From a virus, in the IMG/VR virus record IMGVR_UViG_3300017731_000001: a DNA stretch of 64,000 nt; one strand, written 5' to 3'. Under the pieces are notes generated by a model. The model did not search any database. It was given only the letters and a program-made list of their open reading frames with translations, and was not told the DNA's origin. Made by a program: the position numbers and the translations under genes. The first letter of the stretch is position 1. Every line of letters starts with the position of its first letter. Shown in pieces: positions 3,113-27,500 of the stretch.

Positions 3113-3265
3113 ATGTACGCACAGAAACGAATTGTGAGTGTTACATTAGACATTGAGTGTTATGAAGATCTAGATGTAGAGAATATCGATTGGACTGATA
3201 TTCTAGGTCTAGAAGGTGATGAACATATTGACATTAGTATAAAAGAAACAGTTAACAACTACTAG
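3113..3265 (+). CDS. 50-aa acidic protein (not in ORF track)
   Basis: MYAQKRIVSVTLDIECYEDLDVENIDWTDILGLEGDEHIDISIKETVNNY, downstream of the 3060 promoter. Confidence 0.6.
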   Translation: MYAQKRIVSVTLDIECYEDLDVENIDWTDILGLEGDEHIDISIKETVNNY

Positions 3266-3363
3266 TGTGTCAGTTTGTAGATTGGCACACTTAAAACTAG
3301 TGTCTTGTGCCAATCGAACTAGTGTCACACGAGGCGGCCACAGACCTGAAAATCGTGTATTGT
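3266..3363 (+). promoter_or_regulatory. Early promoter element copy 1 with tandem palindromic operators
   Basis: GTGTCAGT-N6-ATTGGCAC, then GTGCCAAT-N6-AGTGTCAC, then CACAGACCTGAAAATCGTGTATTGT. Confidence 0.75.
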
Positions 3364-3388
3364 AGTTAAGTCATCAGAAATTCACCAA

Positions 3389-3628
3389 ATGCAAGGTTAC
3401 AACGGTTGGGCAAATTGGGAGACCTGGAATGTTGCTCTCTGGATCGGAAATGATCCTGGTTTGTATGAACTGGCATGTGAAACTGCAAGGGATGGTGGAA
3501 CTTATGGTCACCTGGTAAGTATGATTCTCGATTGTGGAAGTAAAGAAACACCAGACGGATGTAAGTGGGACGATGTAAAGATAGACGGAATCGAGGTTAA
3601 TAACATGATGAAAGAACTTATAGACTAA
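3389..3628 (+). CDS. Early hypothetical protein (YNGWxNWETW family)
   Basis: Intact ORF after promoter element; its stop TAA lies inside the 15-bp element. Confidence 0.8.
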   Translation: MQGYNGWANWETWNVALWIGNDPGLYELACETARDGGTYGHLVSMILDCGSKETPDGCKWDDVKIDGIEVNNMMKELID

Positions 3629-3710
3629 GTAACACTCAGGTCAGCTGACCGTGGACAGTCGGACTAGTGTCACAAGGTTTCGGCACAGACCTCAAAACCG
3701 TGTATTGTAG
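3622..3710 (+). repeat. About 89-bp intergenic repeat (15-bp end element + operator + promoter), copy A
   Basis: Nearly identical to 4394-4482. Confidence 0.9.
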
Positions 3711-3736
3711 TTTCAAGTCAAACAATTTTCATCAAA

Positions 3737-3886
3737 ATGGATTACGACACTTTCGACACTGACATTTTCTCTGAGATTAATGACATGCCAGGAGAGATTT
3801 ATGATGTGATTGAATACAAGGAAGAAGGAGAAGATGATAAGAAGTTTGATGTGGAAGAATATATTGAAGGAAATACAGACTACTAA
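3737..3886 (+). CDS. 49-aa highly acidic protein (not in ORF track)
   Basis: MDYDTFDTDIFSEINDMPGEIYDVIEYKEEGEDDKKFDVEEYIEGNTDY; stop lies inside ACTAAGTAACACTCA. Confidence 0.7.
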   Translation: MDYDTFDTDIFSEINDMPGEIYDVIEYKEEGEDDKKFDVEEYIEGNTDY

Positions 3887-3896
3887 GTAACACTCA
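3882..3896 (+). repeat. 15-bp ORF-end element ACTAAGTAACACTCA
   Basis: Exact copies at 3624, 3882, 4081 and 4396. Confidence 0.9.
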
Positions 3897-3921
3897 CTCA
3901 TTCACCCTATCTAACACTACC

Positions 3922-4077
3922 ATGACCGAACTTGAAATGCAAGCAATTGAAGTCCTTGAAATCGTTGAGGATTCAGTAGAATACATTTGTGCCGAAAATG
4001 TTATCAGTGGAGAAAAGGTCTGGACTATGATAGCAGCACTTGCAGATGCCAAACTTGCACAATTCCCTGATAATTGA
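3922..4077 (+). CDS. 51-aa acidic protein (not in ORF track)
   Basis: MTELEMQAIEVLEIVEDSVEYICAENVISGEKVWTMIAALADAKLAQFPDN, lying between two 15-bp elements. Confidence 0.7.
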   Translation: MTELEMQAIEVLEIVEDSVEYICAENVISGEKVWTMIAALADAKLAQFPDN

Positions 4078-4080
4078 GAG

Positions 4081-4095
4081 ACTAAGTAACACTCA
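4081..4095 (+). repeat. 15-bp ORF-end element ACTAAGTAACACTCA
   Basis: Exact copy 3 nt after the TGA at 4077. Confidence 0.9.
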
Positions 4096-4113
4096 CCTCA
4101 CTTCATTCAAATC

Positions 4114-4404
4114 ATGAACTACACTCTCAAGCAACTTCAAGACCGTGTTAATAGTATGATCAAAGAACAGGGAGAAGATGCAGAATGTGCCGCATGGATT
4201 TATACCAAGGAAGATATTCATATGAAGGATGAAAATGGTGAGGTTGATTATGATATTGAGGTAAATGATCCTACACTTGTTGCACGTATCTTTGATGATG
4301 TTGGGCAGATAGATTACATCTACACCATGATTCAAGACTGTGTGGATGAGGTTACAGAGGAGCAACTAATGTTACAACAGCAGGAATTAGTGGAGACTAA
4401 GTAA
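4114..4404 (+). CDS. Early acidic hypothetical protein, 96 aa
   Basis: Intact ORF whose stop is the second TAA of the 15-bp element. Confidence 0.8.
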   Translation: MNYTLKQLQDRVNSMIKEQGEDAECAAWIYTKEDIHMKDENGEVDYDIEVNDPTLVARIFDDVGQIDYIYTMIQDCVDEVTEEQLMLQQQELVETK

Positions 4405-4482
4405 CACTCAGGTCCGCTGCCCGTGGACGGTTGAGTTAGTGTCACACGATTTTGGCACAGACCTCAAAACCGTGTATTGTAG
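4394..4482 (+). repeat. About 89-bp intergenic repeat, copy B
   Basis: Matches 3622-3710; includes TTGGCA-17bp-TATTGT and a stem-loop CACGATTTTG/CAAAACCGTG. Confidence 0.9.
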
Positions 4483-4504
4483 AAGGGTGAAAAAAATCAA
4501 CCAA

Positions 4505-4720
4505 ATGCAAACCTACACCGACCCTTGCACCTATGCCATGCAAAGTGACATGCGCCAACTGAAAGAGATGATCGCATCAGACCTTGCAAACTACATGTTG
4601 GAGATGATGCCTCCCCTTGATATGTGTGTCGATTGGGTATGTGATCGTTTTGCATTGGATGCAACCGACGAACTGATAGATTTCGTTGCTGATTGTCATG
4701 ATGAGTTCTTCGGTAACTGA
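4505..4720 (+). CDS. Early acidic hypothetical protein, 71 aa
   Basis: Start moved to ATG 4505 because the track start lies inside the promoter element. Confidence 0.7.
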   Translation: MQTYTDPCTYAMQSDMRQLKEMIASDLANYMLEMMPPLDMCVDWVCDRFALDATDELIDFVADCHDEFFGN

Positions 4721-4729
4721 TTCAAACCT

Positions 4730-4837
4730 ATGAAATTCACCATCGTTAAGTTCAAAGGTCGTTGGGTCAAAGTATCCAACAAACTATCACCTCCGACTGA
4801 ATGGGTTACAGTCATCAACAAAGCAAACCTTAAGTAA
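4730..4837 (+). CDS. 35-aa basic peptide (not in ORF track)
   Basis: MKFTIVKFKGRWVKVSNKLSPPTEWVTVINKANLK; ends in the degenerate element CTTAAGTAACAC. Confidence 0.55.
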   Translation: MKFTIVKFKGRWVKVSNKLSPPTEWVTVINKANLK

Positions 4838-4846
4838 CACAAACTC

Positions 4847-4978
4847 ATGCGTATCTGTCTTTCTGCCATTGTTATTTTGTTGGGTGCTAATCTTCTCATC
4901 GATCTGCTGGATTCTGATATGGTACAAATTATGCAAGAACGTAACGAAACAATCCAGCGCAGCATAGACCGCATGTGA
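4847..4978 (+). CDS. 43-aa membrane-anchored peptide (not in ORF track)
   Basis: MRICLSAIVILLGANLLIDLLDSDMVQIMQERNETIQRSIDRM; stop overlaps the next operator. Confidence 0.6.
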   Translation: MRICLSAIVILLGANLLIDLLDSDMVQIMQERNETIQRSIDRM

Positions 4979-5031
4979 CAGTCGGACTAGTGCCACACGA
5001 TTTTGGCACGACCCTCAAAACCGTGTATTGT
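4975..5031 (+). promoter_or_regulatory. Early promoter element copy 4
   Basis: GTGACAGT-N6-AGTGCCAC...TTGGCA-17bp-TATTGT. Confidence 0.8.
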
Positions 5032-5084
5032 ATAGAAGTGGAGGGGACAACGCCCGCCACACGCTCTAAACCTCTTCTCTTCTC

Positions 5085-5411
5085 ATGCGTAAAATCGAAA
5101 CCCAGATGAACGTCGCAGTCCAGGCGAACCAGAACTGGACCTCCGGCAACACCAGCGTTTTGACAGAGGACGGCATCTCCAAAGTCTATCTCCATGGCAA
5201 CCTGATCGCTGAGGTTGATGAAGATTCAATGAAACTCTACGACGGCGGTTTCCAGTCCAATACCACCAAATCTCGTCTCAACGCTCTCTGTGATGCGTTC
5301 GGTTATTCTGGCGAAGGCGTATTCCAGAAGAACTGGACCTGGTTCGTCCGTCTCTGGACTGGCACCGAATTCCATACCACTGAGTTCCGGAACGGTATGC
5401 GCCTCGCCTGA
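5085..5411 (+). CDS. Early hypothetical protein, 108 aa
   Basis: Intact ORF after the promoter and a 5' hairpin; VYLHGNLIA and TTKSRLNAL pattern seen in phage early proteins. Confidence 0.8.
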   Translation: MRKIETQMNVAVQANQNWTSGNTSVLTEDGISKVYLHGNLIAEVDEDSMKLYDGGFQSNTTKSRLNALCDAFGYSGEGVFQKNWTWFVRLWTGTEFHTTEFRNGMRLA

Positions 5412-5452
5412 TACAAATCTCCCTCTAATCCTTCAAAATCCTAATTCACAAC

Positions 5453-6364
5453 ATGACAAAAAACCTTCACATCGAACATCCCGAAGACACAATCCTTACC
5501 GGAGATACTTCGTTTTTGGTATCTCTCAAACTGAAGGGTGATTTATCAGTGAAGATTGATGGTGCTCCGGCAATCGTTTGGGGGACCAATCCTGCATCGG
5601 GTGAGTTCTTCGTTGGGACCAAATCCGTATTCAACAAAGTAAAGATCAAAATCAACGAATCGCATCAGGACATCGATGCAAACCACACGGGAGAGGTTGC
5701 AACAATTCTGCATAAGTGCTTCGACTATCTACCACGGGTCGGGGGTATTATTCAGGGGGACTTCATCGGATTCGGTGGGTCTGATGAATACACACCGAAC
5801 ACAATCACGTATCAATTCGATGATACCGTAGAAGAGGAAATCATCGTGGCACCTCATACGCTCTACACGGCAGAATCCGACCTACGTGATGCCGTGGCAG
5901 AACCGCTAAGGTTTATGATTACCGATACAGTTTATTGTAAGTTCGTGTTCCCTAAGGCATATATCTGGAGCGGGTATTATGATGACGGATTGGATCAGTT
6001 TGAGATGCCTCCCGTCATAGACTTGATTCGTCAGGTGTATGATAAGACAACATTCGTAAGTGATAGAGACGCCGCACAGATTAAGCAAAATGTGAATAAG
6101 TCAATTCGCGAAGGTTATCCTATGACGAATGAGGACTTCATGGGCAATGAGTCACTTATGCACCTCTACGGGTTGATGATAGTTTTGAAAGAAGAGTTGA
6201 TGAATCAGTGCCGCAATGTAGGTCCTGAGGCATACCTAGGTCAGGATAGAATCGATGGTGAGGGTTATGTTTATTCCACTGAGTTAGGTACATATAAGTT
6301 GGTTAATCGTCAGCAGTTTTCTGTTGCTAACTTCAACAACACTAAGTTCACAACAGTCTCATAA
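5453..6364 (+). CDS. Ligase-like nucleotidyltransferase-fold protein (DUF6267-like)
   Basis: Candidate motif I SVKIDG, motif III IQGDF, motif IV DGEGYV and motif V YKLVNR. Confidence 0.6.
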   Translation: MTKNLHIEHPEDTILTGDTSFLVSLKLKGDLSVKIDGAPAIVWGTNPASGEFFVGTKSVFNKVKIKINESHQDIDANHTGEVATILHKCFDYLPRVGGIIQGDFIGFGGSDEYTPNTITYQFDDTVEEEIIVAPHTLYTAESDLRDAVAEPLRFMITDTVYCKFVFPKAYIWSGYYDDGLDQFEMPPVIDLIRQVYDKTTFVSDRDAAQIKQNVNKSIREGYPMTNEDFMGNESLMHLYGLMIVLKEELMNQCRNVGPEAYLGQDRIDGEGYVYSTELGTYKLVNRQQFSVANFNNTKFTTVS

Positions 6365-10868: not shown

Positions 10869-13800
10869 ATGATACAGACTGGATTTGAATCTAAAGTCAA
10901 GATTCAACAAATTATTGACAATCAACTTCCTGAGTTCATTTTGGATGAAAATCCAAAAACAGTAGAATTTTTAAAGCAATATTATATTTCTCAGGAATAT
11001 CAAGGCGGACCAGTTGATATTGTTGATAATTTGGATCAATATCTAAAATTAGATAATCTGACTCCAGAAGTTATAGTTGATAGCACCTATGCCACTTCAG
11101 GAATCTCTTCTACGGATACTACAATCGCCGTAAATAGCACTAAAGGATTCCCAAGTCAATATGGTCTATTTAAGATTAATAATGAGGTTATAACCTATAC
11201 TGGAATCACTACAAATTCATTCACTGGATGTCAACGTGGATTTAGTGGGATTACTTCATACCATAGTGAATTAAATCAAGAGGAACTTGTATTTTCTGAT
11301 ACCTCAAAAGAAAACCATAATGAAGATGCAACAGTATATAATTTAAGTTCTTTATTTTTAAGAGATTTTTATAAAAAATTAAAATATACTTTTGCTCCTG
11401 GATTAGAAGATGTTGATTTTGCAAAAGAATTAAATGCTGGAAATTTTATAAAAGAAGCAAAATCTTTTTATCAATCGAAAGGAACTGACGAATCATTTAG
11501 AATTTTATTTAATGTTTTATATGGAGCAACACCAAGAGTAGTAAATTTAGAAGATTATTTAATTAAACCATCTTCTGCAGAGTATCTCAGAAGAGAAATC
11601 GCAATTGCCGAAGTAATTAGTGGAGATCCTTCAAAATTAGTAGGACAAACAATAACCAAATCTACAGATTCTGGAACTACAGCAGCAATATCTGAACTAG
11701 AACCTTTCACTAGAAATAATAAGCAATATTTTAAATTATCTCTCTTTATTGGATATGACGAATCCTCGACAATTCAGGGCAATTTTGCTATTACCCCTAG
11801 CACAAAAAATATTGAAACTGTTGCCATAGGTGCTTCTGTAATTAGTGTAGACTCTACGATTGGTTTTGCACAGACTGGAATGGTTATTTCTGGTATCAAT
11901 AGCATAACTTATTCTGATAAAACTGTTAATCAATTTATTGGATGTACTGGAGTTGCATCGACAATCTCTTCTGCAAGTAATATTAGATCCGATGAGATTT
12001 ATTTTGGTTATGAAGATGGGGATTCGGATAAAAGAGTAGAAATAAGATTAACTGGAGTATTATCTAATTTTATTCAGGTGTCCGATGATTTAAATATTTC
12101 TGAAGGTGATACAATTTCTGTCAATAATGTTGGTGATTTAATTTTAAACCCAAGTATTGGCAACAGAACATACAAAGAAATTTTTGCAAATTCATGGATA
12201 TACAATACTAGTTCATCTTATGAAATAAAAGATTTTGGTGTTAATTTATCATTAACATTAAAAAGTGAAATCGACAAATCCAGTTTAAAAGAAGGAGATA
12301 GTGTCGAAATTATAGAAAGTAGTGGTAATAATCCAGGAAAAGTAGTATTTCCTACATCATCTTCAAGTATTACTCATGTAGTTGATATTTCTCCCGATAA
12401 AAAATCAATTAGTTTAGATAATTTTACTTTTAATCCAAGTCCCAATGTAGAGTATAGTTTAAGAAGAAAAATTAATAAAGCAAGAAGTACAGGTGCTCCC
12501 ATAGAATATGGAAATTCTGCCATCTTAGGAGATGTTCAAAACGTATATACTGATAGCACAGAAAATTTTGGATATGTTGCATCTAATTCTCTACCATCTT
12601 CAACAACAGGACTTACTACATTCTTTACATATGAAATAACTAAAGAAATTAATTCTGCGTTTATAGATTCTGAAGTAAGTTTAGGAAATATTAATGAACT
12701 TAACAATTATACGACTATTACTTTTTCGGAAAATGCACCATTTCTTACTGGAGATAAAATATTATATAAACCAGATGTCGATCCTCTTGAAGGACTAGTT
12801 GAAGGATCATATTTTGTTGAAGTTCTAGCATCTAATAAAAAAACCATTAAATTATACAATTCTTCATCTTTTATAGGATCGACGGATTTTGCAACTTTTT
12901 CAGTTCCAAGTTCTGGAATGAATAAGCATACTTTTACTTTATTTGAGCAGAGAATTGGAGAAATAGGGGCACAAAAACTTCTTAAAAAATTCTCTATTCC
13001 TCCAAATAATAAAAATGGAAAAGGAGAATTGACCATACCAGGAACTACTGGTATGTTGATTAATGGTGTTGAAGTTGTAAATTATAAATCAGAAGATAAA
13101 ATTTATTATGGACCTTTAAATTCTATAAAGGTATTAAATGGTGGTAGCAATTATGATGTGATTAATTTGCCACAATTATCAGTTTCTGCTGGTTTGGGGA
13201 CAACTGCATTATGTCGTCCGGTAATTCAGGGGTCTATTGAAAGAGTTGACATCGATACTCAGGATTTTGATATTGACAATGTTACTTCAATTAAAGTAAT
13301 TGGTGGAAATGGTACTGGAGCCGATATTAGGGCAGTAGTTGGTAAAAGAGTTAGAGAAGTAAATTTTGATGGACAGTTAATATCGTCAAATGGTGGAGTA
13401 GATAACAATACAAATCAAATAACTTTCTTAACGGATCATAATTTTTCAGATGGTCAAGAAGTAATTTACGATTCTAACAGAAATACAGGAATTGGAGTTG
13501 GAATAGGAACTTCATCTCTAGTTGATGAAGGTTCTTATTTTGTAAAAATTGATAATAATACGACAGTTCAATTATTTGAATCATATGATGATTATTCTTC
13601 AAATAGTAATGTTGTAGGTCTTAGTACTCTTTATACTACGGGTATTCATAAATTTAAAACAAAGGAAAAGACTAAAACAATTTCTTCTGTTGATGTAATT
13701 AATGGTGGAAGTGGATACACTAATAGAAAATTAATTGTTTCTCCAACGGGAATAACCACATCAAATGGTTTGATTAGTTTTAAAAATCATGGATTTGCTG

Positions 13801-16800
13801 ATGGTGATTTAATTCTTTATTCCACTGATGGAACATCAATTACTGGATTAACAACATCAACAGGAATAACAACAACATCAGTTCAGTACCAAATAATAAA
13901 AGTTGATAATAATTCATTTAAACTTGCTAATGCTGGAGTTGGTGGAACATCCCCCCTAAATTATCAAAATAACAATTTTGTTAAATTATCTTCAACGGGA
14001 GTTGGATATCAGAATTTCGCTTATCCTGATATTTCTGTTTCTATTGAATTTACATCTGTAGGCGTTGGAACAACTGTATCCACCAGAACATTATCAGCAA
14101 CTCCTTTAGTAAAAGGTAGTATTATTGATGCATACATTTATGATGCAGGAACTGGATATGGATCCAGTGCTATTAATTTTGAAAAGAAACCTTTAATTAC
14201 TCTAAAAAGTGGAAAGAAAGCACAATTAAAACCCATCATAGTTGGTGGAATGGTTGATGTAGTAAATGTTCAGTTTGGAGGAGTGGAATATTTTTCTGTT
14301 CCTGACTTAGAAGTTATAGATTCCAGTGGATCTGGATCTGGTGCTTTATTGAGACCGGTCATATCAACATCCGGAAAAATAACAGATGTTAAAATTATTA
14401 ACGCTGGTATAGGATACTCTAGTACTTCCACTTCCATTAAAGTTGTCCCTAGTGGGTCTGGTGCTATTTTTGACACTGAAGTTAGATCGTTGAGTGTTAA
14501 TAATATTCATAAGTACGGAAATGAAATATTAAGAGAGACTAAAAACAAATTGCAATATACTATTTCTGGATATTATACTGAGTTAAGATCTACATTTAAA
14601 GATGTTCAGAGTAAAGTTTCTGGAATAATTGGTTGGGCATACGATGGAAATCCGATATACGGACCATATGCAAACTCTGATGTGTTGGATACAAGTTCTG
14701 GTCCAATACGTTTAGAATCTGGATACACCAGTAATTCTTCTAGAATTATTGATAGACCCATGGGATTTGATGATGGATTTTTTATTGAGGATTACGAATA
14801 TACAAATTCTGGAGATTTGGATAGACACAATGGTAGATTTACAAAAACAGTAGATTTTCCTAACGGTGTTTATGCGTATTTTGCCACCATTGACAGCAAT
14901 GGAAACCCACAATTCCCATATTTTATCGGAGACAAATATAGGACAAATACTTTAGAAGAAAATAAACTTTTAAATCAAGAATTTAATTTTACAAATTCTA
15001 ATTTACTTAGAAATACTTTCCCATATAAAGTATCCGACCCTTTTGCAAATAATGACTTTTTAATTGAAACCAATGAAATTTCAAGACAAAAATCAGTTAT
15101 TGAATCTGTCACAGAAGGACCAATAGAAAAAATTGATATTCTCAATTCGGGCACAGGTTATAAAGTAAATGATTCTTTAAATTTTGATAATAATGAAACT
15201 AATGGTGATGGGGTTATTGCAAAAATAACTTCAATTTTAGGAAAAAATGTATATAATATACAAACTTCGATAGAAACTTATGATGATGCCATTTTTACTT
15301 GGAATGGAGAAAATGAGATAAAAGTTTCAATTTTACCTCAACATAATCTCAGAGATAAAGAGTATGTAACTATTTCCGGATTTAGTAGTGATTTATCTCA
15401 ATTAAATAATAATTTTCAGATTGGAATCAGTTCTTTTTACTCCAATCTTTCCTCACCAATAGTTGGGTCCGATGCATCTCCTGGAGCAGCAACTACGGAG
15501 ATATACGTATCTCAAATTCCAAGTTCCGTTTCTGCCGGAAGTAGTGTTGGAATTGGATCCGAAACTTTACAAATATTAAATATATTTCCCAATCTGAATA
15601 TTCTCAGAGTTAAGAGAGGTTTAGTCGGAACTTCTCATACTACCACCACAAAAATTGAATATATTCCAGATTCTTTTACAATATCAAAGAATGCGAGTTA
15701 TTTTGAGTCTTCAGTAAATGATAAAGCATACTTCAACCCTAAAGAATCAGTAGGTGTTGGCACGATTGTTGGAATATCAAGTTCAATGACTTTTGAATTT
15801 GGTGATTCTTCTGTGACAAGAGATATTCTAACACAAAGAATTTATATTGAAAATCATCCATTTATAACCAATCAACCTGTCAATTTGATTGTTCCGGCTG
15901 GTGGCGCAATTTCAATTTCCAACACATCTTTAAGCACTCCATATAACTTACCAATATCAGGAGTTACTACCACAGTATATGTTGTAAAAAAGACAATAAA
16001 TTCTATTGGTATTAAAACAGGAATTGGAAATGAATTTAAGGAAGTATTTTTCCGCAATAACGGAACTGATAGTGATGAATATTTATTTGAAAGTATTAGT
16101 CCACAAAAAAAATCAAAAGTTCAAAGAATTAATTCAGTTGTTTCAATTTCAACTGTTGGTCTGAATACGGTAGATCCCGGACAAACTTATCATAAATTGT
16201 CCTCTGGAGATAAAATTACTTTAAATGTTCAACCTAAAATTTTTGGAGGAATAGGAACGGATACATCAGTAATTGTAAAGAGAGACACTCTTACTGATAG
16301 TCTCATTGTAAATCCAATTACCATTGATCCTTCTAATATTGATTCTGTAACTAATCAGATTACAATCAATTCTCATAAATTAGAAACAGGTCAAAAAGTA
16401 AGTTATGCTGCATCTTTACCTGCTTCCGGACTATCTACCGGGTCTTACTATGTCTATAGAATAAATGAAAATATTATTCAACTTTCCGAGACATACATTA
16501 ACTCTACATCAAATCCACCCAATGTAGTGAGTATTGCAAACACTGGTGGCGGAACACAAACAATTTCTCCAATAAATCCAAAAATTAAGATAGTCAAAAA
16601 TAATAGTTTAGTTTTTGATCTGTCAGATTCCTCTTTAGATGGATATCTATTAAAAATTTATTATGATAATCAATTTAATAATGAATTTGTCTCTACTGGT
16701 TCAACTAGTGGAATAACTATTGCGGGTGTAGGAACTGTCGGTGTTAGTGCTAATGCCAAGTTGACTCTCAATTATAACACTGACAATTCTACCAATATTT

Positions 16801-19800
16801 TACCAGAAAAATTATATTATAACTTAGAAAAATCTGGATATATTAGCACTGCAGATGCCGAGGTTAATAATTATTCGGAAATAGAATATATTAAAAGTTC
16901 TTACAATTCTACATATCCTATTTCAGGAATTGGAGAAACGACATTTAATGTTGCACTTAATGAAATTCCAGAAAAACTATCTTATGAATCATCCGAATGT
17001 TCTACTTTGGAATATTCTACAACTTCATTAAATGCAGATGGACCAATTGAAAAAATTAATATTGTTTCTGGAGGGGCTGGATATAAAAAATTACCAAATT
17101 ATGTTGGTTCTTCAAATACCACAGCAAAAGATGCTAATTTGATTGCATCTTCCAAATCTGTTGGTAATACAAAAAATGTGAGAATAATTAATGAAGGATT
17201 TGAATATTCTTCTGATAGAACTTTACAACCAAAAGCAAATATACCAGCAATAGTTACAATTAAAAATTCAAATACTATTGGAATAGTTACAGTTATTAAT
17301 GGAGGAAAAAATTACACAGAATCTCCAAGAGTAGTGATAGTAGACACTGGTACTGGACAATCAATTGATAGAGGAATTTTATCAGCAAGTATTGTTGGAA
17401 ACTCTATTAGTTCAGTAGATGTTCTTCAGTCACCTAAAGGTCTTCCTGATAAATCAACAGAATTATTTACTGTAGAGAATACAAATGGAATTAGCATCCA
17501 AAGAGTCATCCAAGAAACAGACACTAGGTTTGTTTGTAGAATAACAACACCGGCTCTCGGATTTAGTACTAGTTCATTTAGTGTTGGAGAAAAAGTTTTT
17601 ATTGAGGGAATTCAAAAAGTTGGTGCTGCAGGTTCTGGATTTAACTCTGAAGATTATGGATATAAATTCTTCACTGTCAGTGAATATAAAAACTCTAAAT
17701 TTGTTGGAGGTATAACTCAAGATGAGGTTACAATTGATCTGAGTGAATTTACAACTAACATAGGAACTGCCAAGACAATTCAAGATTCTCTTGGAAATAT
17801 AATTAAAAAATCTGATTATCCAACTTTTGACATTGTTCAAGAAATATCTGAATTTACTTTAGGAGAAAAATTATCTATCAATGGACAAAATTCTAACTTA
17901 ATAGTTTCTGGACTTAATCCAGGATCTATAAAAATTTCCGGAGATGATAATGAAGATATAGTTGTTGGTGATATTCTTACAGGACAAGTAAGTTCAAATA
18001 TTGCTACTATAGATCACATTGTTAGAAATAATGGTAGATTTGAAGTTAGTTTCTCTAATAAAAAAAGAATAGGATGGGATAATAACATTGGTAAACTAAG
18101 TTCGGACGATCAAGTAATTCCTGATAACGATTATTATCAAAATCTTTCATATACAGTTAAGAGTCCTATTGAGTGGAGAGAATTTAGAACTCCTGTTAAT
18201 AGTCTTGTTCATACTAGTGGTCTTAAGAATTTTGGTGATCTTGGAATATCTTCAACAGCAAATGCTGGTATTGGTAGCACAACTGCATTTACTATAGTAC
18301 GTGATCTTTTAGAAGAACTTAGAGTAGATACCATTTATAATTTTGACAATGTTCTTGATATTGATGTTGTTGGATCTCAATCCAAATTCTTAAAATTACA
18401 AAATAGAAAATTAACTGATTTTACTTTATCAAAAAGTAATGTAGTTTTAAAAATTGATGATATCAGTGACACATTTTCTAATTCAAACAATATTGAAGAT
18501 ACTGATGTTAAAGATCTTTTCACATTTGCTAGTTCAGATTCCTTTGATGATGTTTTGGTTAGAGTAACTAATTCTAATAATAGCCAAATTCAATTAGCAG
18601 ATTTTACTATTATTAGTGATAATAGCGGAGGCAATTTCTTATTAGAAAAAGGAAATATTGCTAATATTGGGTCAGCTTTAACTTCTGTAGTGGGTGAGGA
18701 TTATGGAAGTTTTTCTGTGACGGATACAAATACATTAAGGTTTGCACCCAAAGATCCGGATAATATTGATTATAATTTTAAATTTATTAAAAACACTTTT
18801 GGATCTGCAACTTCTGGTGTTGGAACCACATCCATCGGATTTATAAATCTAACTGGTTTTAGTGGTGTTGTAACTTCTGGTGGTTCTGGAATAACCAGTT
18901 CTATTATCGGAGTTGCTACTGATAAATTTACTTCATTACATGTTAATACTCAAATTATTCAGTCTAATACAAATGAACTGAATTTTGTAGAATTGTATAT
19001 TACCCATAATGGTACAGATACTTTCTTATCAGAGTATTATTTTGATACTAATGAAAATGCTTCATCTTTCAATTTTATCGGTTCTTTTGGTGCTGATATT
19101 AGTTCTGGAGTTTTAAATCTAAGTTATACTAATGATACTGCAAATGATGTTCAACTGAGATCTAAGATTGTTGGATTTGGAACCACCTCAGTGGGAGTTG
19201 GAACACATAGATTTATCTTACCATCTCAACCAGAAGGATCTGAAAGAAGTGCAATAATCAAATCTGCATATGAAACTACAGTTTCAGCGGCCGCGACAAC
19301 AGTCATAAGTTTTGATAGAAATCTATTCAACTCAGTTAAATCTTTAGTTGAAGTAAGTATGGGGTCTACAAAAGCAGTTCATAATGTATTGGCTTTACAA
19401 GACAATACTTTTGATAATTATGTTCAACAATCATCTTTCCTTTCTGCTGGGGGAATAGGAGTAACTGATGCACAGAGTGGAATGGGAACATTTGGTGTGG
19501 AATATTCTGGAGAAAACTTTATACTTAAATTCTATCCAGATGCTGCAATGACATCATCTTTACAAGTTTCGTCTCTCAACGAAATGTTGTATACAGAATT
19601 AGATTTAAATAATACTGCACCCATTCATCAATATGGCGACATAACACAATCTTTAAATGCTGAATTCTATAATGCGGTAAATGGAAGTAGAATTGATAAA
19701 ACTGATTTTATAGCACAATCTAATGGAATTCCAATTTTTGGAAAAACTTTTAACCCAACTAACCCTTTACAATTAAATCTCAGTACTGGCGTATTTACAA

Positions 19801-22800
19801 TTGACAATCACTTCTTCAGAACTGGCGAAGCTCTTTCATATACTCCCCAATCAACTTTTGTTGGAGTTGGGTCAACTGCAATGACGTATGGTACTGGAAC
19901 GCCTTTACCATCAGTTGTATATGCAATTAGAGAAAATGATGATGAATTTAAACTTGCCACAACTAGAGCAAATGCGGAAGCAGGTGTAAATGTATCTTTC
20001 GGATCATCTGGTGAAGGAAATGCTCATGAATTGTCAATGTTATTAGGTAATGAAAAAACATTAATAACCATAGACAGTATAGCACAATACCCACTGAAGT
20101 TTACTCCAATTGCACATACACTATCAGGAAACCCTGGGGGTCAGATTGGAACCACATCCACATTTTTGAGTTTAAGTGGAATTTCTTCAATAACCCCGAC
20201 AGATTTAATAAAAATTAATGATGAATATATGAAGATTATAAGTGTTGGTATTGGAACTACAGCAGTTGGACCAATAACTGGAATAGGTCAGTCATCTTTG
20301 GTTGAAGTCAAGAGAGGAGTAGTTGGTTCCACAGCAACATCTCATTCTGCTGGGAATGAAGTTAGAGTATATAAAGGTTCGTATAATATTTCCGGTAGAA
20401 ATATTCACTTTGTTGATCCTCCAAAAGGAAACACTTCAGTTAAAAAAGATGTAAGTAATCTCGAACCAGCAAAATCAGATTTTACTGGCAGAGTTTATCT
20501 TAGAAATAATTATGATACAAATCAAATATATGACGATATTTCTAATCAATTTACTGGAATAGGGGCAACATTTACATTGACTGTTGGTGGAGCAAACACT
20601 ACTGGAATTGGAAGTACTGGTGGTAATGGCATTCTGTTTATAAATGGCATTTTCCAGACTCCTTCAACAGCCAATAATCCGGATAATAATTTTTCGTTAA
20701 ATGATGAAAGTACTGTGGGTGTAACAAGTGTTACCTTCAGTGGAATAACTTCTACGGATGGAACTAAGTATTTGTCAAATACTGATTATAATGCAAATCA
20801 ATTGCCGAGAGGAGGAGTAATTGTTTCCCTAGGATCCTCTGGTGGACTTGGATATGCACCCCTAGTTGGTGCTGCTGTGAGTGCCGTAGTTGGTGCCGGT
20901 GGTTCTATAGCAGGATTTACCACAGCATTAACTGGTGGTTCTTTTGGGTCTGGATATAATGGAATAGTATCAATAGGTGTGAGTGTTCATGAGAGTGGGC
21001 ATACTGGTGCTGCTGCAGTAGTATCAGCAACTGCTCTAGTTGGAGCCGGTGGAAGTTTATCTCTTATCGTAGTTGGAAATGGAGGATCGGGATATTCAAA
21101 TCCAGAAGTAATTGTTTCAGAACCAACTTATGAAGGTCTTGAGATAGAAGGAATTTCTAGATTAGGATTTGGTAATACTACACTAACTGGTGTTAATTTA
21201 TTGGTTGATATTGAGGTAGGTGCTGCAACAACAAGTGGAATAGGTTCTGATACATTTGAAGTTTCAAACTTTAAAATTGCAAGAAATGGATATGGATTCA
21301 GAAAAGGAGATATTATTAGACCAGTTGGTTTAGTCACACATAGTACTCTTTCATCAGCAACTTCCGAATTTTTATTGACAGTTGATGATGTATACAACGA
21401 TTCAATTGGAGCATGGCAATTTGGTGAATTTGATTACATAGATTCAATTAAAAATTTCCAAGATTCTAGTAGAACTAGATTCCCACTTTTCTATAATGAC
21501 GAACTTATAAGTTTTGAAGCACAGGAAGGAACACAAGTAAATCTTGCTAATGCATTATTAATTGTAATTAACGGCATTATTCAAGATCCTGGAGTTGCAT
21601 ATTTCTTTGAAGGTGGAACTTCATTCAGTTTTATTGAAGCACCTAAACCAGAAGATAATATTGATATTTTCTTCTATAGAGGAACCAGGAATGGTGATGA
21701 TCAATTGGTCACAAGTATCAATCAAACCATCAAACGGGGCGATTTGGTACAGGTTTATAAAAATAATGCAATTAATGGAACAATATCACAAAATAAAAGA
21801 ACTGTATTTGACTTATCATTCTCGGATAAATTCGAAACAAACTTATATTCTGGCAACGGAATTGATGAGACAAATTACAAACCACTTGCATGGACAAAAC
21901 AAAAAATAGATAAAATTATTAATGGTGAAATTGTTTATAAGTCCAGAGATTCTATAGAGACACAAGTATTCCCGACTGCTAAAATTATCAATACGGTAGA
22001 AAGCAGCGATACTGAAGTATTTGTAGAAAATTTGAAGTTGTTTGATTATGATTCTGCCAGTGATTTTAGTGGTTTGATTGTTAGTGGTTCTACAGATCCA
22101 GTAGCAGCTGCTATAACGGCCACTGTTTCGACTGCAGGAACTATCACTGGATATACAATTTCATCTGGTGGTAGTGGATATACCTCAATTCCGACTATTT
22201 CAGTTGTTGCTCCGCCAGAAGTTGGAGTTGGAGTAGGAACAACTGCGACTGCGACTGCCACTATTTCTGCCGGTGCAGTTTCATCAATTTTAGTTAATAA
22301 TCCAGGACTTGGATATACGATTGCTCCACAGGTTATCGTATCTCTTCCAAATCCAACTTATGAGAATATATCTAGCATTGACGTAATTCAAGGTTTTAGT
22401 GGTATTGTTACTGGAATTACTACCGTAAATGCTCAGGGAATAGGAACATTAGCAATTCAATTTAACTTACATAGATTAGATAGCATATCAAATTACAATA
22501 ATCTTGTTGTTGGATATCCAATTTACATCTATGATACTTCAGTCGGAAATGGCGTAACTTCAATTGCTAATAATGATTTATCTGTTGTTGGTGTTGGTAC
22601 AACTTTCGTAGATAATGTATACTTCATTCAGGAAATATCTAACGTTGGTCTTGCGGGTTCTATTGTTTGTTATGTAAATTCAGGAACTTCAGTTGTTGGT
22701 ATTGCAACAACATCAAATTCGAGCAATCCTGTTGGAAGATTCTCATGGGGAAGATTTGCTGGAATAAGTAGATCTAGTTCCCCAGTTTCTATAGCAGTAA

Positions 22801-22898
22801 CTGGAAATACTGTTGATGTTGGATTGACAACTTTCCCAACAATTCAGAGAAGAGGTACTGGATTAAGGGATGGAGGAGCACTTCCAAAAAATATATAA
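10869..22898 (+). CDS. gp7: Baseplate wedge initiator gp7-like giant protein, 4009 aa
   Basis: Lies between gp6 and gp8; FYQSKGT..SFRILF and YYQNLSYTVKS...VHTSG motifs; many repeated beta-rich domains. Confidence 0.85.
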   Translation: MIQTGFESKVKIQQIIDNQLPEFILDENPKTVEFLKQYYISQEYQGGPVDIVDNLDQYLKLDNLTPEVIVDSTYATSGISSTDTTIAVNSTKGFPSQYGLFKINNEVITYTGITTNSFTGCQRGFSGITSYHSELNQEELVFSDTSKENHNEDATVYNLSSLFLRDFYKKLKYTFAPGLEDVDFAKELNAGNFIKEAKSFYQSKGTDESFRILFNVLYGATPRVVNLEDYLIKPSSAEYLRREIAIAEVISGDPSKLVGQTITKSTDSGTTAAISELEPFTRNNKQYFKLSLFIGYDESSTIQGNFAITPSTKNIETVAIGASVISVDSTIGFAQTGMVISGINSITYSDKTVNQFIGCTGVASTISSASNIRSDEIYFGYEDGDSDKRVEIRLTGVLSNFIQVSDDLNISEGDTISVNNVGDLILNPSIGNRTYKEIFANSWIYNTSSSYEIKDFGVNLSLTLKSEIDKSSLKEGDSVEIIESSGNNPGKVVFPTSSSSITHVVDISPDKKSISLDNFTFNPSPNVEYSLRRKINKARSTGAPIEYGNSAILGDVQNVYTDSTENFGYVASNSLPSSTTGLTTFFTYEITKEINSAFIDSEVSLGNINELNNYTTITFSENAPFLTGDKILYKPDVDPLEGLVEGSYFVEVLASNKKTIKLYNSSSFIGSTDFATFSVPSSGMNKHTFTLFEQRIGEIGAQKLLKKFSIPPNNKNGKGELTIPGTTGMLINGVEVVNYKSEDKIYYGPLNSIKVLNGGSNYDVINLPQLSVSAGLGTTALCRPVIQGSIERVDIDTQDFDIDNVTSIKVIGGNGTGADIRAVVGKRVREVNFDGQLISSNGGVDNNTNQITFLTDHNFSDGQEVIYDSNRNTGIGVGIGTSSLVDEGSYFVKIDNNTTVQLFESYDDYSSNSNVVGLSTLYTTGIHKFKTKEKTKTISSVDVINGGSGYTNRKLIVSPTGITTSNGLISFKNHGFADGDLILYSTDGTSITGLTTSTGITTTSVQYQIIKVDNNSFKLANAGVGGTSPLNYQNNNFVKLSSTGVGYQNFAYPDISVSIEFTSVGVGTTVSTRTLSATPLVKGSIIDAYIYDAGTGYGSSAINFEKKPLITLKSGKKAQLKPIIVGGMVDVVNVQFGGVEYFSVPDLEVIDSSGSGSGALLRPVISTSGKITDVKIINAGIGYSSTSTSIKVVPSGSGAIFDTEVRSLSVNNIHKYGNEILRETKNKLQYTISGYYTELRSTFKDVQSKVSGIIGWAYDGNPIYGPYANSDVLDTSSGPIRLESGYTSNSSRIIDRPMGFDDGFFIEDYEYTNSGDLDRHNGRFTKTVDFPNGVYAYFATIDSNGNPQFPYFIGDKYRTNTLEENKLLNQEFNFTNSNLLRNTFPYKVSDPFANNDFLIETNEISRQKSVIESVTEGPIEKIDILNSGTGYKVNDSLNFDNNETNGDGVIAKITSILGKNVYNIQTSIETYDDAIFTWNGENEIKVSILPQHNLRDKEYVTISGFSSDLSQLNNNFQIGISSFYSNLSSPIVGSDASPGAATTEIYVSQIPSSVSAGSSVGIGSETLQILNIFPNLNILRVKRGLVGTSHTTTTKIEYIPDSFTISKNASYFESSVNDKAYFNPKESVGVGTIVGISSSMTFEFGDSSVTRDILTQRIYIENHPFITNQPVNLIVPAGGAISISNTSLSTPYNLPISGVTTTVYVVKKTINSIGIKTGIGNEFKEVFFRNNGTDSDEYLFESISPQKKSKVQRINSVVSISTVGLNTVDPGQTYHKLSSGDKITLNVQPKIFGGIGTDTSVIVKRDTLTDSLIVNPITIDPSNIDSVTNQITINSHKLETGQKVSYAASLPASGLSTGSYYVYRINENIIQLSETYINSTSNPPNVVSIANTGGGTQTISPINPKIKIVKNNSLVFDLSDSSLDGYLLKIYYDNQFNNEFVSTGSTSGITIAGVGTVGVSANAKLTLNYNTDNSTNILPEKLYYNLEKSGYISTADAEVNNYSEIEYIKSSYNSTYPISGIGETTFNVALNEIPEKLSYESSECSTLEYSTTSLNADGPIEKINIVSGGAGYKKLPNYVGSSNTTAKDANLIASSKSVGNTKNVRIINEGFEYSSDRTLQPKANIPAIVTIKNSNTIGIVTVINGGKNYTESPRVVIVDTGTGQSIDRGILSASIVGNSISSVDVLQSPKGLPDKSTELFTVENTNGISIQRVIQETDTRFVCRITTPALGFSTSSFSVGEKVFIEGIQKVGAAGSGFNSEDYGYKFFTVSEYKNSKFVGGITQDEVTIDLSEFTTNIGTAKTIQDSLGNIIKKSDYPTFDIVQEISEFTLGEKLSINGQNSNLIVSGLNPGSIKISGDDNEDIVVGDILTGQVSSNIATIDHIVRNNGRFEVSFSNKKRIGWDNNIGKLSSDDQVIPDNDYYQNLSYTVKSPIEWREFRTPVNSLVHTSGLKNFGDLGISSTANAGIGSTTAFTIVRDLLEELRVDTIYNFDNVLDIDVVGSQSKFLKLQNRKLTDFTLSKSNVVLKIDDISDTFSNSNNIEDTDVKDLFTFASSDSFDDVLVRVTNSNNSQIQLADFTIISDNSGGNFLLEKGNIANIGSALTSVVGEDYGSFSVTDTNTLRFAPKDPDNIDYNFKFIKNTFGSATSGVGTTSIGFINLTGFSGVVTSGGSGITSSIIGVATDKFTSLHVNTQIIQSNTNELNFVELYITHNGTDTFLSEYYFDTNENASSFNFIGSFGADISSGVLNLSYTNDTANDVQLRSKIVGFGTTSVGVGTHRFILPSQPEGSERSAIIKSAYETTVSAAATTVISFDRNLFNSVKSLVEVSMGSTKAVHNVLALQDNTFDNYVQQSSFLSAGGIGVTDAQSGMGTFGVEYSGENFILKFYPDAAMTSSLQVSSLNEMLYTELDLNNTAPIHQYGDITQSLNAEFYNAVNGSRIDKTDFIAQSNGIPIFGKTFNPTNPLQLNLSTGVFTIDNHFFRTGEALSYTPQSTFVGVGSTAMTYGTGTPLPSVVYAIRENDDEFKLATTRANAEAGVNVSFGSSGEGNAHELSMLLGNEKTLITIDSIAQYPLKFTPIAHTLSGNPGGQIGTTSTFLSLSGISSITPTDLIKINDEYMKIISVGIGTTAVGPITGIGQSSLVEVKRGVVGSTATSHSAGNEVRVYKGSYNISGRNIHFVDPPKGNTSVKKDVSNLEPAKSDFTGRVYLRNNYDTNQIYDDISNQFTGIGATFTLTVGGANTTGIGSTGGNGILFINGIFQTPSTANNPDNNFSLNDESTVGVTSVTFSGITSTDGTKYLSNTDYNANQLPRGGVIVSLGSSGGLGYAPLVGAAVSAVVGAGGSIAGFTTALTGGSFGSGYNGIVSIGVSVHESGHTGAAAVVSATALVGAGGSLSLIVVGNGGSGYSNPEVIVSEPTYEGLEIEGISRLGFGNTTLTGVNLLVDIEVGAATTSGIGSDTFEVSNFKIARNGYGFRKGDIIRPVGLVTHSTLSSATSEFLLTVDDVYNDSIGAWQFGEFDYIDSIKNFQDSSRTRFPLFYNDELISFEAQEGTQVNLANALLIVINGIIQDPGVAYFFEGGTSFSFIEAPKPEDNIDIFFYRGTRNGDDQLVTSINQTIKRGDLVQVYKNNAINGTISQNKRTVFDLSFSDKFETNLYSGNGIDETNYKPLAWTKQKIDKIINGEIVYKSRDSIETQVFPTAKIINTVESSDTEVFVENLKLFDYDSASDFSGLIVSGSTDPVAAAITATVSTAGTITGYTISSGGSGYTSIPTISVVAPPEVGVGVGTTATATATISAGAVSSILVNNPGLGYTIAPQVIVSLPNPTYENISSIDVIQGFSGIVTGITTVNAQGIGTLAIQFNLHRLDSISNYNNLVVGYPIYIYDTSVGNGVTSIANNDLSVVGVGTTFVDNVYFIQEISNVGLAGSIVCYVNSGTSVVGIATTSNSSNPVGRFSWGRFAGISRSSSPVSIAVTGNTVDVGLTTFPTIQRRGTGLRDGGALPKNI

Positions 22899-24500: not shown

Positions 24501-27500
24501 ATGTCACAAAAAACAAACTTAAATATCAATCCATATTATGATGACTATGATTCTGAAAAGAATTTTTATAAGGTCTTATTTAAACCAGGATTTCCAGTTC
24601 AAGCAAGAGAATTAACAACGTTACAATCTGTTCTGCAGGGACAGGTAGAATCTTTTGGTAGTCATATATTTAAAGAAGGTTCAGTTGTTATACCGGGAAA
24701 TATTTCTTATGATGGCCAGTTTTATGCTGTAAAACTTAATGCTACTAGTGCTGGAATTGATGTCGCACTGTATATTGAAAATTTTATAGGTAAAAAAATA
24801 ATTGGTCAAGAATCAGGCACTACTGCCAAAATTCAACAAATTGAATTTGCTGATAATAATAATTTTGAATTTTTGACAATTTACGTAAAATATCTAGACT
24901 CTGATAACGATTTTGAATTTACTCCGTTTCAAGATGGAGAATCCTTATCTTGTGTGGATAATGTAACTTATGGAAACACTACTATTCCTGCAGAAACAGA
25001 ATTTGCATCTTTAATCGCATCAGATGCAACTGCTATTGGTTCTGCAGCTTCCATTGGTAAGGGGGTTTATTTTATTAGAGGATATTTTGTAAATGTTTCG
25101 CAGCAAACTTTACTTTTAGATAATTATACGAATACACCATCATATAGAGTTGGTTTAAAAATTGATGAGTTAATTTTAGGGTCTAAAGATGATGAGTCTT
25201 TATTTGATAATGCAAAAGGATTTACAAATTTTGCCGCGCCAGGTGCAGATAGATTTAAAATAAATTTAACTCTTACCAAAAAATTAATATCAGACGTTAA
25301 TGATACAGATTTTGTTGAACTTTTAAGATTAAAAGATGGTAAGATTCAAAAAATTACCACAAAAACACAATATAATCAAATTCGTGATTATATGGCTGAA
25401 AGAACATATGATGAATCTGGTGATTATGCAGTAATACCATTTGATCCGTCAGTTCATAATTCATTGAATAATAGACTAGGGAATAACGGTCTTTTCTTCT
25501 CCAATGAATTAACAGAACAAAGAAATACACCATCCGAAGATTTGATGTGTTTCAAAATATCTCCAGGAAAAGCATATGGGAGGGGATATGATGTAGAAAA
25601 AGTTGGAACTACAATAATTGATGTAGACAAACCTAGAGATACACAAAAAGAATCTAACGTAACTGTCCCATTTGAGATGGGAAATTTACTTAGAGTTAAT
25701 AACGTTACTGGTGTTCCTCAAAACAAAGCAACAATTCAATTATTAAATAGAAAAACAGGTGATACAGAATCAGTAATAGGTGACGCTAGAGTATATACCT
25801 TTAATCTTACAGATGCTGCATATTCTGGAGTAGAAACAAAGTATGATTTGAGATTATATGATATTCAAACATATACAAAATTATCCCTCAATCAGAGCGT
25901 AGATGCCACTGATATGCCAGAGGGATCTTTTATTAAAGGTAAGAGTAGTGGTGCAAGTGGATTTCTTGTTGGTGCTGGTGGAGGAGCGTCTGTAGGTATT
26001 TTATTGAGACAAACTTCTGGTTCTTTTGCTAAAGGAGAGCAAATAACTATTAATGGAGTTGATTTCTCAAGAACAATTTCAGATTTTATTGAATATGGAA
26101 CTCAAAATATTAAATCAGTAAAACAGGCAGCGGGTAGTGGTTTTCCTGCATTTACGGCAGATTCAGTTCTTGAAAAATTTGATATGCCCAATGGAATATC
26201 ACAAATATCAATTCCATTAGTTGGTAATTTAGGAAATACTGGTGTTTCAACAGTAACAGTAACAGGAAACGTATTCAGTGGAATAAAAACTGATACTCTT
26301 ATTTCATATCAAAGACCAGGATTTAGTACCGAAACTGTTAATAGAGTTTCTTCTATCTCTGCGGATAAACTTTCTATAGAACTTAGTCCAGTCAGTGCTG
26401 GTGCCGGAATCACTGGTGTTTATGATGGCAAGTTACCTTCTGGAAGTGGAAATCTTTTAGTTACACCACTTGCTCGTGGACCAATTATTGATAGTGAAAA
26501 TGCACAGTTATTTTCACGATTGCCAGATATTAATATTTCTTCAGTAGATTTACTTAATTCAACATTTACAGTTGTCGATCAAATAACTGGAGAATCTACC
26601 GATTCTTCTGGCACATTGACATTTGATCTTTCAAGTATTTCTGGAATAACCAGTGCTTCTTTTGCAACTTTTGATCAGGAGAGATATGGCGTTCATTATT
26701 CTACCGGAATAGCAGGAACAATTACAAGTGATACTTTTGATTTAACAAATAATGTCGTAACAATTAAAGGATTGAGAGCAAGTCAATCAAATATTATTGT
26801 AAATACAACTCTTACTAAATTTGGAGTTCAAAGTAAGATTAAGCAATATAATAGAAGTCAGACATTAAATATAACAAGATCAAAATATTCCGATTCTGGA
26901 GTTGGTATTAATACTTCCAACAATGATGGACTCAATTTTAATACTCAATATGGATTAAGAGTTCAGGATGAAGAAATTTCTTTAAACTATCCAGATGTTG
27001 CAAAAGTTATAGTAATTTATGAATCTTTGGGAACAGGAAATCCCACTTTAGATAAATTTCAGTTTACTTCAACCGCTAATGTTCAAACGAATGCAATAAT
27101 TGGGGAAAATATAGTAGGAAATTCTAGTAATGCGATTGCTAGAGTTGTTTCATCTCCATCTGCAAATAATTTAGAGTTAGTATATTTGTCCGACGATGTA
27201 TTTAATGTTGGCGAAACAGTAACTTTCCAAGAATCAAATATAATTACAGAAATAGAAACTATTACATTGGGAAGTTATAAAGATGTAACTCAATTATTTA
27301 AATTGAATAAGGGACAGAAGGATGAATATTATGATTATTCCAGAATTGTTAGAAATAAAAATGTTCCAGAACCAACTCGTAGATTATTAGTCATCTTCGA
27401 TTATTATTCTGTGCCATCTGATGATAATGGAGATGCATTTACTGTATTGAGTTATGATGAAGAAAGATTTGCACAAGATATACCAACCATAGGTCGTTAT

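Follow-up and report, generated by a model that had tools for sequence, protein, structure and literature searches.

In the lambdoid phages, according to the modular theory, conserved linker or boundary sequences provide homologous recombination with a foothold between modules that are themselves unrelated. These sequences are discussed by Arbiol et al. 2010 (PMC2839356), and the same work and that of Comeau et al. 2014 (PMC4122927) describe the promoter-early stem-loops (PeSLs) of the T4-type phages RB49/phi1, T4/PST and KVP40/nt-1, i.e. composite stem-loop plus early-promoter repeats of ~100 bp that are located in hyperplastic regions, begin at the upstream stop codon and mediate indels and replacements through homologous exchange, with mini-circles being formed. 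Here we analyze a 15-bp element, ACTAAGTAACACTCA, that recurs at the 3' ends of very small, putatively early genes between positions 3,266 and 5,031 of a 64,000-nucleotide virus sequence (IMG/VR record IMGVR_UViG_3300017731_000001; this whole stretch is referred to as the window). We consider it probable, with the reservations given below, that the single-gene cassettes of the early-gene array are joined by a portable stop-linker, of which this motif is the core and which acts as a short-homology crossover point. In terms of known systems, it is most likely a promoter-less, homology-driven variant of PeSL-type gene shuffling. No match for the literal motif strings was found in the literature in a phage context, and the titles and abstracts returned by keyword searches contained no such linker. 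In a study of cyanophage S-PM2 PeSLs were looked for and dense arrays were not found, and a large comparison of cyanomyoviruses discusses mobile cassettes, tRNAs and endonucleases and no such linker (PMC3037559).

Four exact copies of the 15-mer are present in the window, all on the + strand (at 3624, 3882, 4081 and 4396), with none elsewhere in the 64 kb and no match in any of 100 dinucleotide-preserving shuffles. Outside these four copies, the 10-nt core, TAAGTAACAC, is found in the window only at 4831. The first-pass annotation of this DNA had listed the same four exact copies together with a degenerate one at 4829, and this list stands, with the specification that the latter differs from the 15-mer at four positions and is thus a core-only copy. 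What had been overlooked is a degenerate second core, TATCTAACAC, at 3908-3917, i.e. 24 nt past the core copy at 3884; it lies in the linker that follows 3882 and corresponds to the two-copy linker of relatives (see below). The genes that end at the motif are indeed unrelated, as they belong to different PHROG families and yield no significant pairwise blastp match. The stop codon that had been ascribed to each of them also proved correct when checked against the ORF coordinates and the sequence: the first TAA of the motif terminates ORF3389 and ORF3737 and the second terminates ORF4114 and ORF4730, and ORF3922 ends at a TGA of its own (4075-4077). In the case of ORF4114 the final two codons (Thr-Lys) are even read out of the motif. 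Since the copies at 3624 and 4396 abut an 89-nt promoter repeat (family D1) and those at 3882 and 4081 stand alone, motif and promoter repeat are two distinct elements, in line with the earlier reading.

The window belongs to an uncultured, S-SKS1-like T4-type cyanophage. It encodes T4-type gp23, gp15-like and gp19-like proteins, a prohead protease, UvsW and gp45/gp44, as well as a metallophosphatase that is possibly of the gp47/Mre11 type (Pfam gives the general family only). The nearest isolate is Synechococcus phage S-SKS1 (Llyrvirus), to which the nucleotide identity is ~77% in the terminase and neck genes and 84-86% across the small-gene array; a contig in IMG/VR (L010) is 99.9% identical to the window over 4 kb.

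In order to sample gene ends independently of the motif, loci were fetched by protein homology to ORF4114 (80 loci) and to ORF3737 (64 loci). The motif is found at 168 of the 676 unique gene-end junctions in these loci, about a quarter, invariably in sense and linked to the stop codon: 72 of these genes stop at the first TAA, 74 at the second and 22 at a stop of their own upstream of the motif. The split over the two TAAs implies that stop donation in two frames is a general property of the element. The claim that the motif is conserved independently of the proteins is thereby borne out, in the sense that the upstream reading frame is immaterial and both TAAs are used. The homologs of ORF4114 display two styles of gene end, namely either a tight TGATG/ATGA overlap without the motif, where the protein ends in ...QELV, or the linker, where the coding region either takes two codons from the motif (...VETK) or is closed by a TAG directly in front of it, and it follows that the motif is imposed on the gene end and is not part of the gene. 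Most unique contexts of the ORF3737 homologs have a Tyr-TAA fused to the core, and these genes (84-98% protein identity) are followed by at least 9 different downstream partners.

The first-pass annotation had interpreted the motif as a junction for gene shuffling, and the comparison with relatives supports this: the breakpoints of gene gain and loss map to it, both in terms of the presence or absence of ORF4114 and in terms of changes of neighbours. Homologs of ORF3737, ORF3922 and ORF4114 adjoin many different genes, and the homology stops at the motif. Clustering of the flanks of 98 unique contexts yielded 19 clusters on the left and 37 on the right, which occur in 54 combinations, and one left gene can have as many as 11 different right partners. 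Which 3 nt precede the core depends on the left gene, and which 2 nt come after it (CA, TA or AA) depends on the right partner; as the flanking bases track their own side, the linkage must switch within the 11-nt core. In pairs of contexts that have the same left and a different right gene (n = 373) the homology ends 10-18 nt past the core start in 308 cases, and in pairs with the same right and a different left gene (n = 100) it begins at -5 to 0 relative to the core start.

Complete cassettes are gained or lost as well. Five contigs are without window positions 4096-4392, i.e. the ORF4114 cassette (L017, L040 and three, L018, L029 and L046, that match the window at ~95% identity to the left and to the right), and the junction that takes its place is a single motif copy with the left flank of copy 4081 and the right flank of copy 4396, so that the indel lies exactly at the two flanking copies. 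Four others (L008, L034, L035 and L037) are without ORF3389 and one promoter, with end points in the promoter repeats, and between ORF3389 and ORF3737 L017 has a short plain linker where the window has motif plus promoter. An indel has its end points in whichever of the two elements, motif or promoter repeat, borders the gene, and this fits an exchange between direct repeats of any kind and not one at a dedicated site.

In S-SKS1, in many ocean virus contigs and in some isolates of the Kyanoviridae (T4-like cyanophages), the motif forms the core of an intergenic linker that is almost free of G, and it ends numerous other gene families, in over 100 independent contigs and in another phage family. 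S-SKS1 has the same kind of array, with 16 motif-like sites in 7 kb where 0.37 are expected, and 10 of the 12 TAASTAACAC sites in its 208-kb genome lie in one 3.3-kb stretch, all gene-oriented. The S-SKS1 linker is usually longer and consists of a stop-proximal core, a G-free spacer of 12-13 nt, a second core, a T-rich or CA-rich leader and the ATG; the second core is mostly TAACTAACAC and follows ~25 nt after the first (e.g. in locus L001 at 1331-1380 and 1571-1620). The Kyanoviridae isolates ACG-2014j and ACG-2014d have the same linker words around their ORF4114 homolog, and the element is therefore common to two phage families. The exact 15-mer is matched in IMG/VR about as often as expected by chance, and in that scan only multi-copy matches and matches in a cyanophage context are meaningful, several groups with one-to-one flanks being unrelated coding matches.

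Tandem pairs of the motif at a distance of 25 nt were also observed (L001 2146-2185 and 3831-3870, L032, and L077 2807-2850), usually before a promoter module. The second copy of such a pair is often a variant in which one TAA is gone and a TGA is made, and which could form a 5-7-bp hairpin with the spacer. This AU-rich hairpin (AGTATCA / TGATACT, in S-SKS1 and contigs) was compared by eye and, with one compensatory change and several broken pairs, discarded as too weak. Matches resembling the NtcA site (GTA-N8-TAC), the Pho box and boxA were likewise considered by eye and none of them fits.

How could such an element work? Crossovers between motif copies would be made by the general T4-type recombination and replication machinery of the phage (S-SKS1 has a RecA/UvsX-like gene, and the window contributes UvsW, the metallophosphatase and gp44/gp45), by way of short-homology recombination, strand annealing or template switching, and no dedicated site-specific recombinase would be involved. 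Within one genome such a crossover would result in a deletion, possibly via small circles, and between co-infecting phages in an insertion or a replacement. A joint inside the motif would end the upstream protein cleanly and keep the downstream start region. By preserving both the stop and the start region, it would leave recombinants viable and let the linker spread together with its cassettes.

Like a PeSL, the 15-mer is an intergenic repeat that starts at the upstream stop codon, lies between small non-essential or ORFan genes of a plastic T4-type region and coincides with the breakpoints at which related phages differ by an insertion, deletion or replacement, and for neither of the two is a dedicated recombinase known. 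Unlike a PeSL, it has no promoter and no stable stem-loop, sits at junctions inside operons, offers a shared block of 11-17 nt instead of ~100, donates a stop in two frames and is common to S-SKS1-like phages and Kyanoviridae. As it fails on both promoter and stem-loop it is not a PeSL, although it is PeSL-like in its genetic consequence; the 89-nt promoter repeat of the window is itself PeSL-like in behaviour, as the ORF3389 indel illustrates. With the boundary sequences of the lambdoid phages the motif has in common that short conserved sequences at gene boundaries serve as a recombination foothold; it differs from these in that it separates single micro-genes, is a defined stop motif and is dense, occupying about a quarter of the array junctions.

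The tiny early genes of cyanophages form a large reservoir of unknown functions with a very fast turnover. The element would represent a sequence-defined seam for the exchange of single genes among them, including exchange between S-SKS1-like phages and Kyanoviridae on the same Synechococcus hosts, and would extend linker-mediated modular shuffling to a promoter-less and structure-free stop motif of 11-17 nt. In practice, the TAAGTAACAC core should provide a simple marker of cassette boundaries in viromes, and S-SKS1, which grows on Synechococcus WH7803, offers a testable system.

A number of considerations weigh against a crossover role. The fully shared block is short for recombination of the RecA/UvsX type (just 11-17 nt, where PeSLs have ~100 bp). 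The neighbours of ORF4114 change about as often at the motif-less, tight TGATG-type junctions, and the motif is therefore not required for shuffling. In T4-like cyanophage contigs (L092-L107, L124-L128 and L136-L156) the ORF4114 homolog lies in TGATG/ATGA overlaps and still has many different neighbours, so that single-gene shuffling occurs without any linker too. The idea that motif junctions are hotter than overlap junctions was dropped, as the neighbour-sharing test gave no evidence of the motif being needed: at 60-97% gene identity, neighbours are shared at 18-22% for motif junctions versus 7-13% for overlap junctions, with shared promoter modules inflating the former value. The breakpoint statistics are moreover anchored on the motif, which means that the pattern arises partly by construction. 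Finally, GTAACAC is retained in S-SKS1 even where the first stop is a TGA; stop donation plus homology alone do not explain this, and it hints at a sequence-specific reader.

The alternative that survives best is that the motif is kept first and foremost for a task at the RNA level in the polycistronic early mRNA, and that recombination at it merely follows from its being repeated; we regard this as possible, though on the whole unlikely. The first-pass annotation had also put forward an RNA processing or protein-binding signal, which may be a primary or an additional role. Candidate tasks are termination in two frames combined with an unstructured, Shine-Dalgarno-less, pyrimidine/A-rich pad for re-initiation (of the S1 type known from cyanobacteria), or else a segmentation of the mRNA through cleavage or binding at this site. 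The invariable sense orientation and the attachment to the stop codon are what one would expect from such a job, and so are the composition and predicted openness of the linkers. The latter contain 1 G in 18-40 nt (the leaders after 3882, 4081 and 4831 have one G each, namely the motif's own), and the predicted mean unpaired probability of the leaders is 0.66-0.72 versus 0.50 for the region (82nd-96th percentile), with 0.68 for the 3882 linker, which has its 1 G in 40 nt. Similarly, the last 15-20 nt ahead of the ATGs of early genes, the promoter-proximal ones included, contain neither a G nor a GGAG-like ribosome-binding sequence, a small set of leader words recurs ahead of different genes, and GTAACAC is kept next to a TGA stop. 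Nevertheless, the spacing between the second core copy and the ATG ranges from 3 to 17 nt, which is unlike a ribosome-binding signal, and after two of the four copies there is a promoter and not a start codon. No conserved RNA structure was found in the motif plus promoter module (16 copies), the consensus fold having -2.6 kcal/mol and no compensatory pair, there is no Rfam match, and the same genes in other phages use overlapping stop and start codons without the motif. The RNA-level view and the shuffling view are compatible.

Less likely still, in our judgement, is that the stop-linker constitutes a sequence-specific signal for cassette exchange, acting via some phage protein or in single-stranded form, that maintains a common micro-gene pool across unrelated marine cyanophage families. 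If true, the signal would represent an integrase-free counterpart of integrons.

The first-pass annotation had drawn an analogy with integrons, and in terms of mechanism it fails. Just as in integron cassettes, there is one promoter-less, co-oriented gene per unit, to be read from an upstream promoter, with a junction element that overlaps the stop codon. What is lacking is the integron machinery: no IntI-type integrase was found in the sequences scanned (see below), there are no foldable imperfect inverted repeats (R''-L''/L'-R') and no core or inverse-core sites such as those of attC, and the crossovers fit homology, not site-specific exchange. The possibility of a dedicated cassette system, integron-like or otherwise site-specific, in which a phage or host protein would read the motif as its recombination site, must therefore be judged very unlikely. 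The single-gene units, their direct orientation, the precise cassette indels, a core conserved across two phage families and a conservation beyond stop-codon needs would all suit such a system. The search for an enzyme gave no tyrosine recombinase (PF00589) in the complete S-SKS1 genome (208 kb) or in a 61-kb contig of a relative (G001), no serine recombinase (PF00239) in the S-SKS1 genome, and no recombinase among the 30 window ORFs scanned with Pfam, in agreement with the earlier remark that no integrase is visible in the window. As read from the sequence, the 15-mer has no dyad, no GTTRRRY and no RYYYAAC core, and with neither an integrase or resolvase found in these searches nor attC features present the integron model was rejected. 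Furthermore, there are indels in this array that have their end points in the promoter repeats instead, which is what one would see if any repeat sufficed.

That the copies are role-less leftovers of a local tandem duplication, or of common descent of intergenic DNA, is hardly credible: all of them lie within 1.2 kb and three have a 17-mer in common, but the flanking genes are unrelated, two reading frames are used and the motif ends many gene families elsewhere, so that the comparative data already contradict it.

The coordinates of the array are given in Table 1. ORF3737, ORF3922 and ORF4114 lie between the promoter repeat that ends at 3710 and the one that starts at 4394, with linkers only between them, and no promoter was found between the motif and the next ATG at the copies 3882, 4081 and 4831, nor a terminator-like site at the motif. 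These promoter-less single genes would be read from the upstream promoter, in so far as transcription can be predicted from the sequence. D1 copies 3 and 4 contain TTGGCA-17-TATTGT, which is sigma-70-like, and it is from such promoters that we infer the 'early' status of the array genes.

Table 1. Motif copies, genes, cassettes and repeats of the small-gene array (positions in the window)
Feature	Position	Strand	Description
Motif copy 1	3624..3638	+	First TAA (3626-3628) is the ORF3389 stop; promoter module directly 3'
Motif copy 2 and G-poor linker to ORF3922 ATG	3882..3921	+	Motif at 3882-3896; first TAA is the ORF3737 stop
Motif copy 3 and G-poor linker to ORF4114 ATG	4081..4113	+	Motif at 4081-4095; own TGA of ORF3922 3 nt upstream
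Motif copy 4	4396..4410	+	Second TAA (4402-4404) is the ORF4114 stop; followed by promoter module
Core-only copy and 6-nt leader to ORF4847 ATG	4829..4846	+	TAAGTAACAC at 4831-4840; second TAA is the ORF4730 stop
ORF4114 single-gene cassette (leader and gene)	4096..4395	+	Flanked by 17-nt direct repeats, 4079-4095 and 4394-4410
ORF3389 and one promoter module	3374..3682	+	PeSL-type indel; end points within flanking promoter repeats
ORF3389	3389..3628	+	79 aa; DUF7249 / phrog_871
ORF3737	3737..3886	+	49 aa; very acidic; 64 homologous loci in IMG/VR
ORF3922	3922..4077	+	51 aa; no family match
ORF4114	4114..4404	+	96 aa; phrog_1255; homolog in Kyanoviridae isolates (86-87% nucleotide identity); motif-flanked S-SKS1 homolog SWZG_00177
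ORF4505, ORF4730 and ORF4847	4505..4978	+	71 aa (phrog_10297), 35 aa and 43 aa (phrog_2517); predicted third transcription unit of the array
Promoter repeat family D1, copy 1	3277..3365	+	Further copies at 3622-3710, 4394-4482 and 4945-5033
Inverted repeat, 28-nt arms	3262..3333	.	Array head; upstream of and overlapping the first promoter copy

The long inverted repeat at the head of the array is situated between ORF3113 and the first promoter, and may act as a terminator or insulator; its counterpart in S-SKS1 is a longer, near-perfect stem (L001 236-330). ORF3113 itself holds two reverse-complement copies of the 3' part of the motif (3136-3145 and 3155-3163). These were considered as a partner site and rejected, as they fall within an invariant peptide, VSVTLDIECY, for which distant homologs vary synonymously (GTT/GTA, AGT/TCC), and they are probably a coding coincidence.

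Most of the array proteins (window 3113-4720) are strongly acidic, for instance with 19 of the 49 residues in ORF3737, and there is no paralogy among them. The 2-kb stretch that comprises most of the array (4001-6000) has a G+C content of 45%, with values of 30-40% for every other 2-kb stretch in the window. An ORF-poor stretch at 2500-2900 contains three 11-nt tandem repeats (2612-2651) and a pair of 28-nt repeats (2643-2703), and two very large ORFs are found among the virion genes, at 10869-22898 (4009 aa) and at 24501-32033 (2510 aa).

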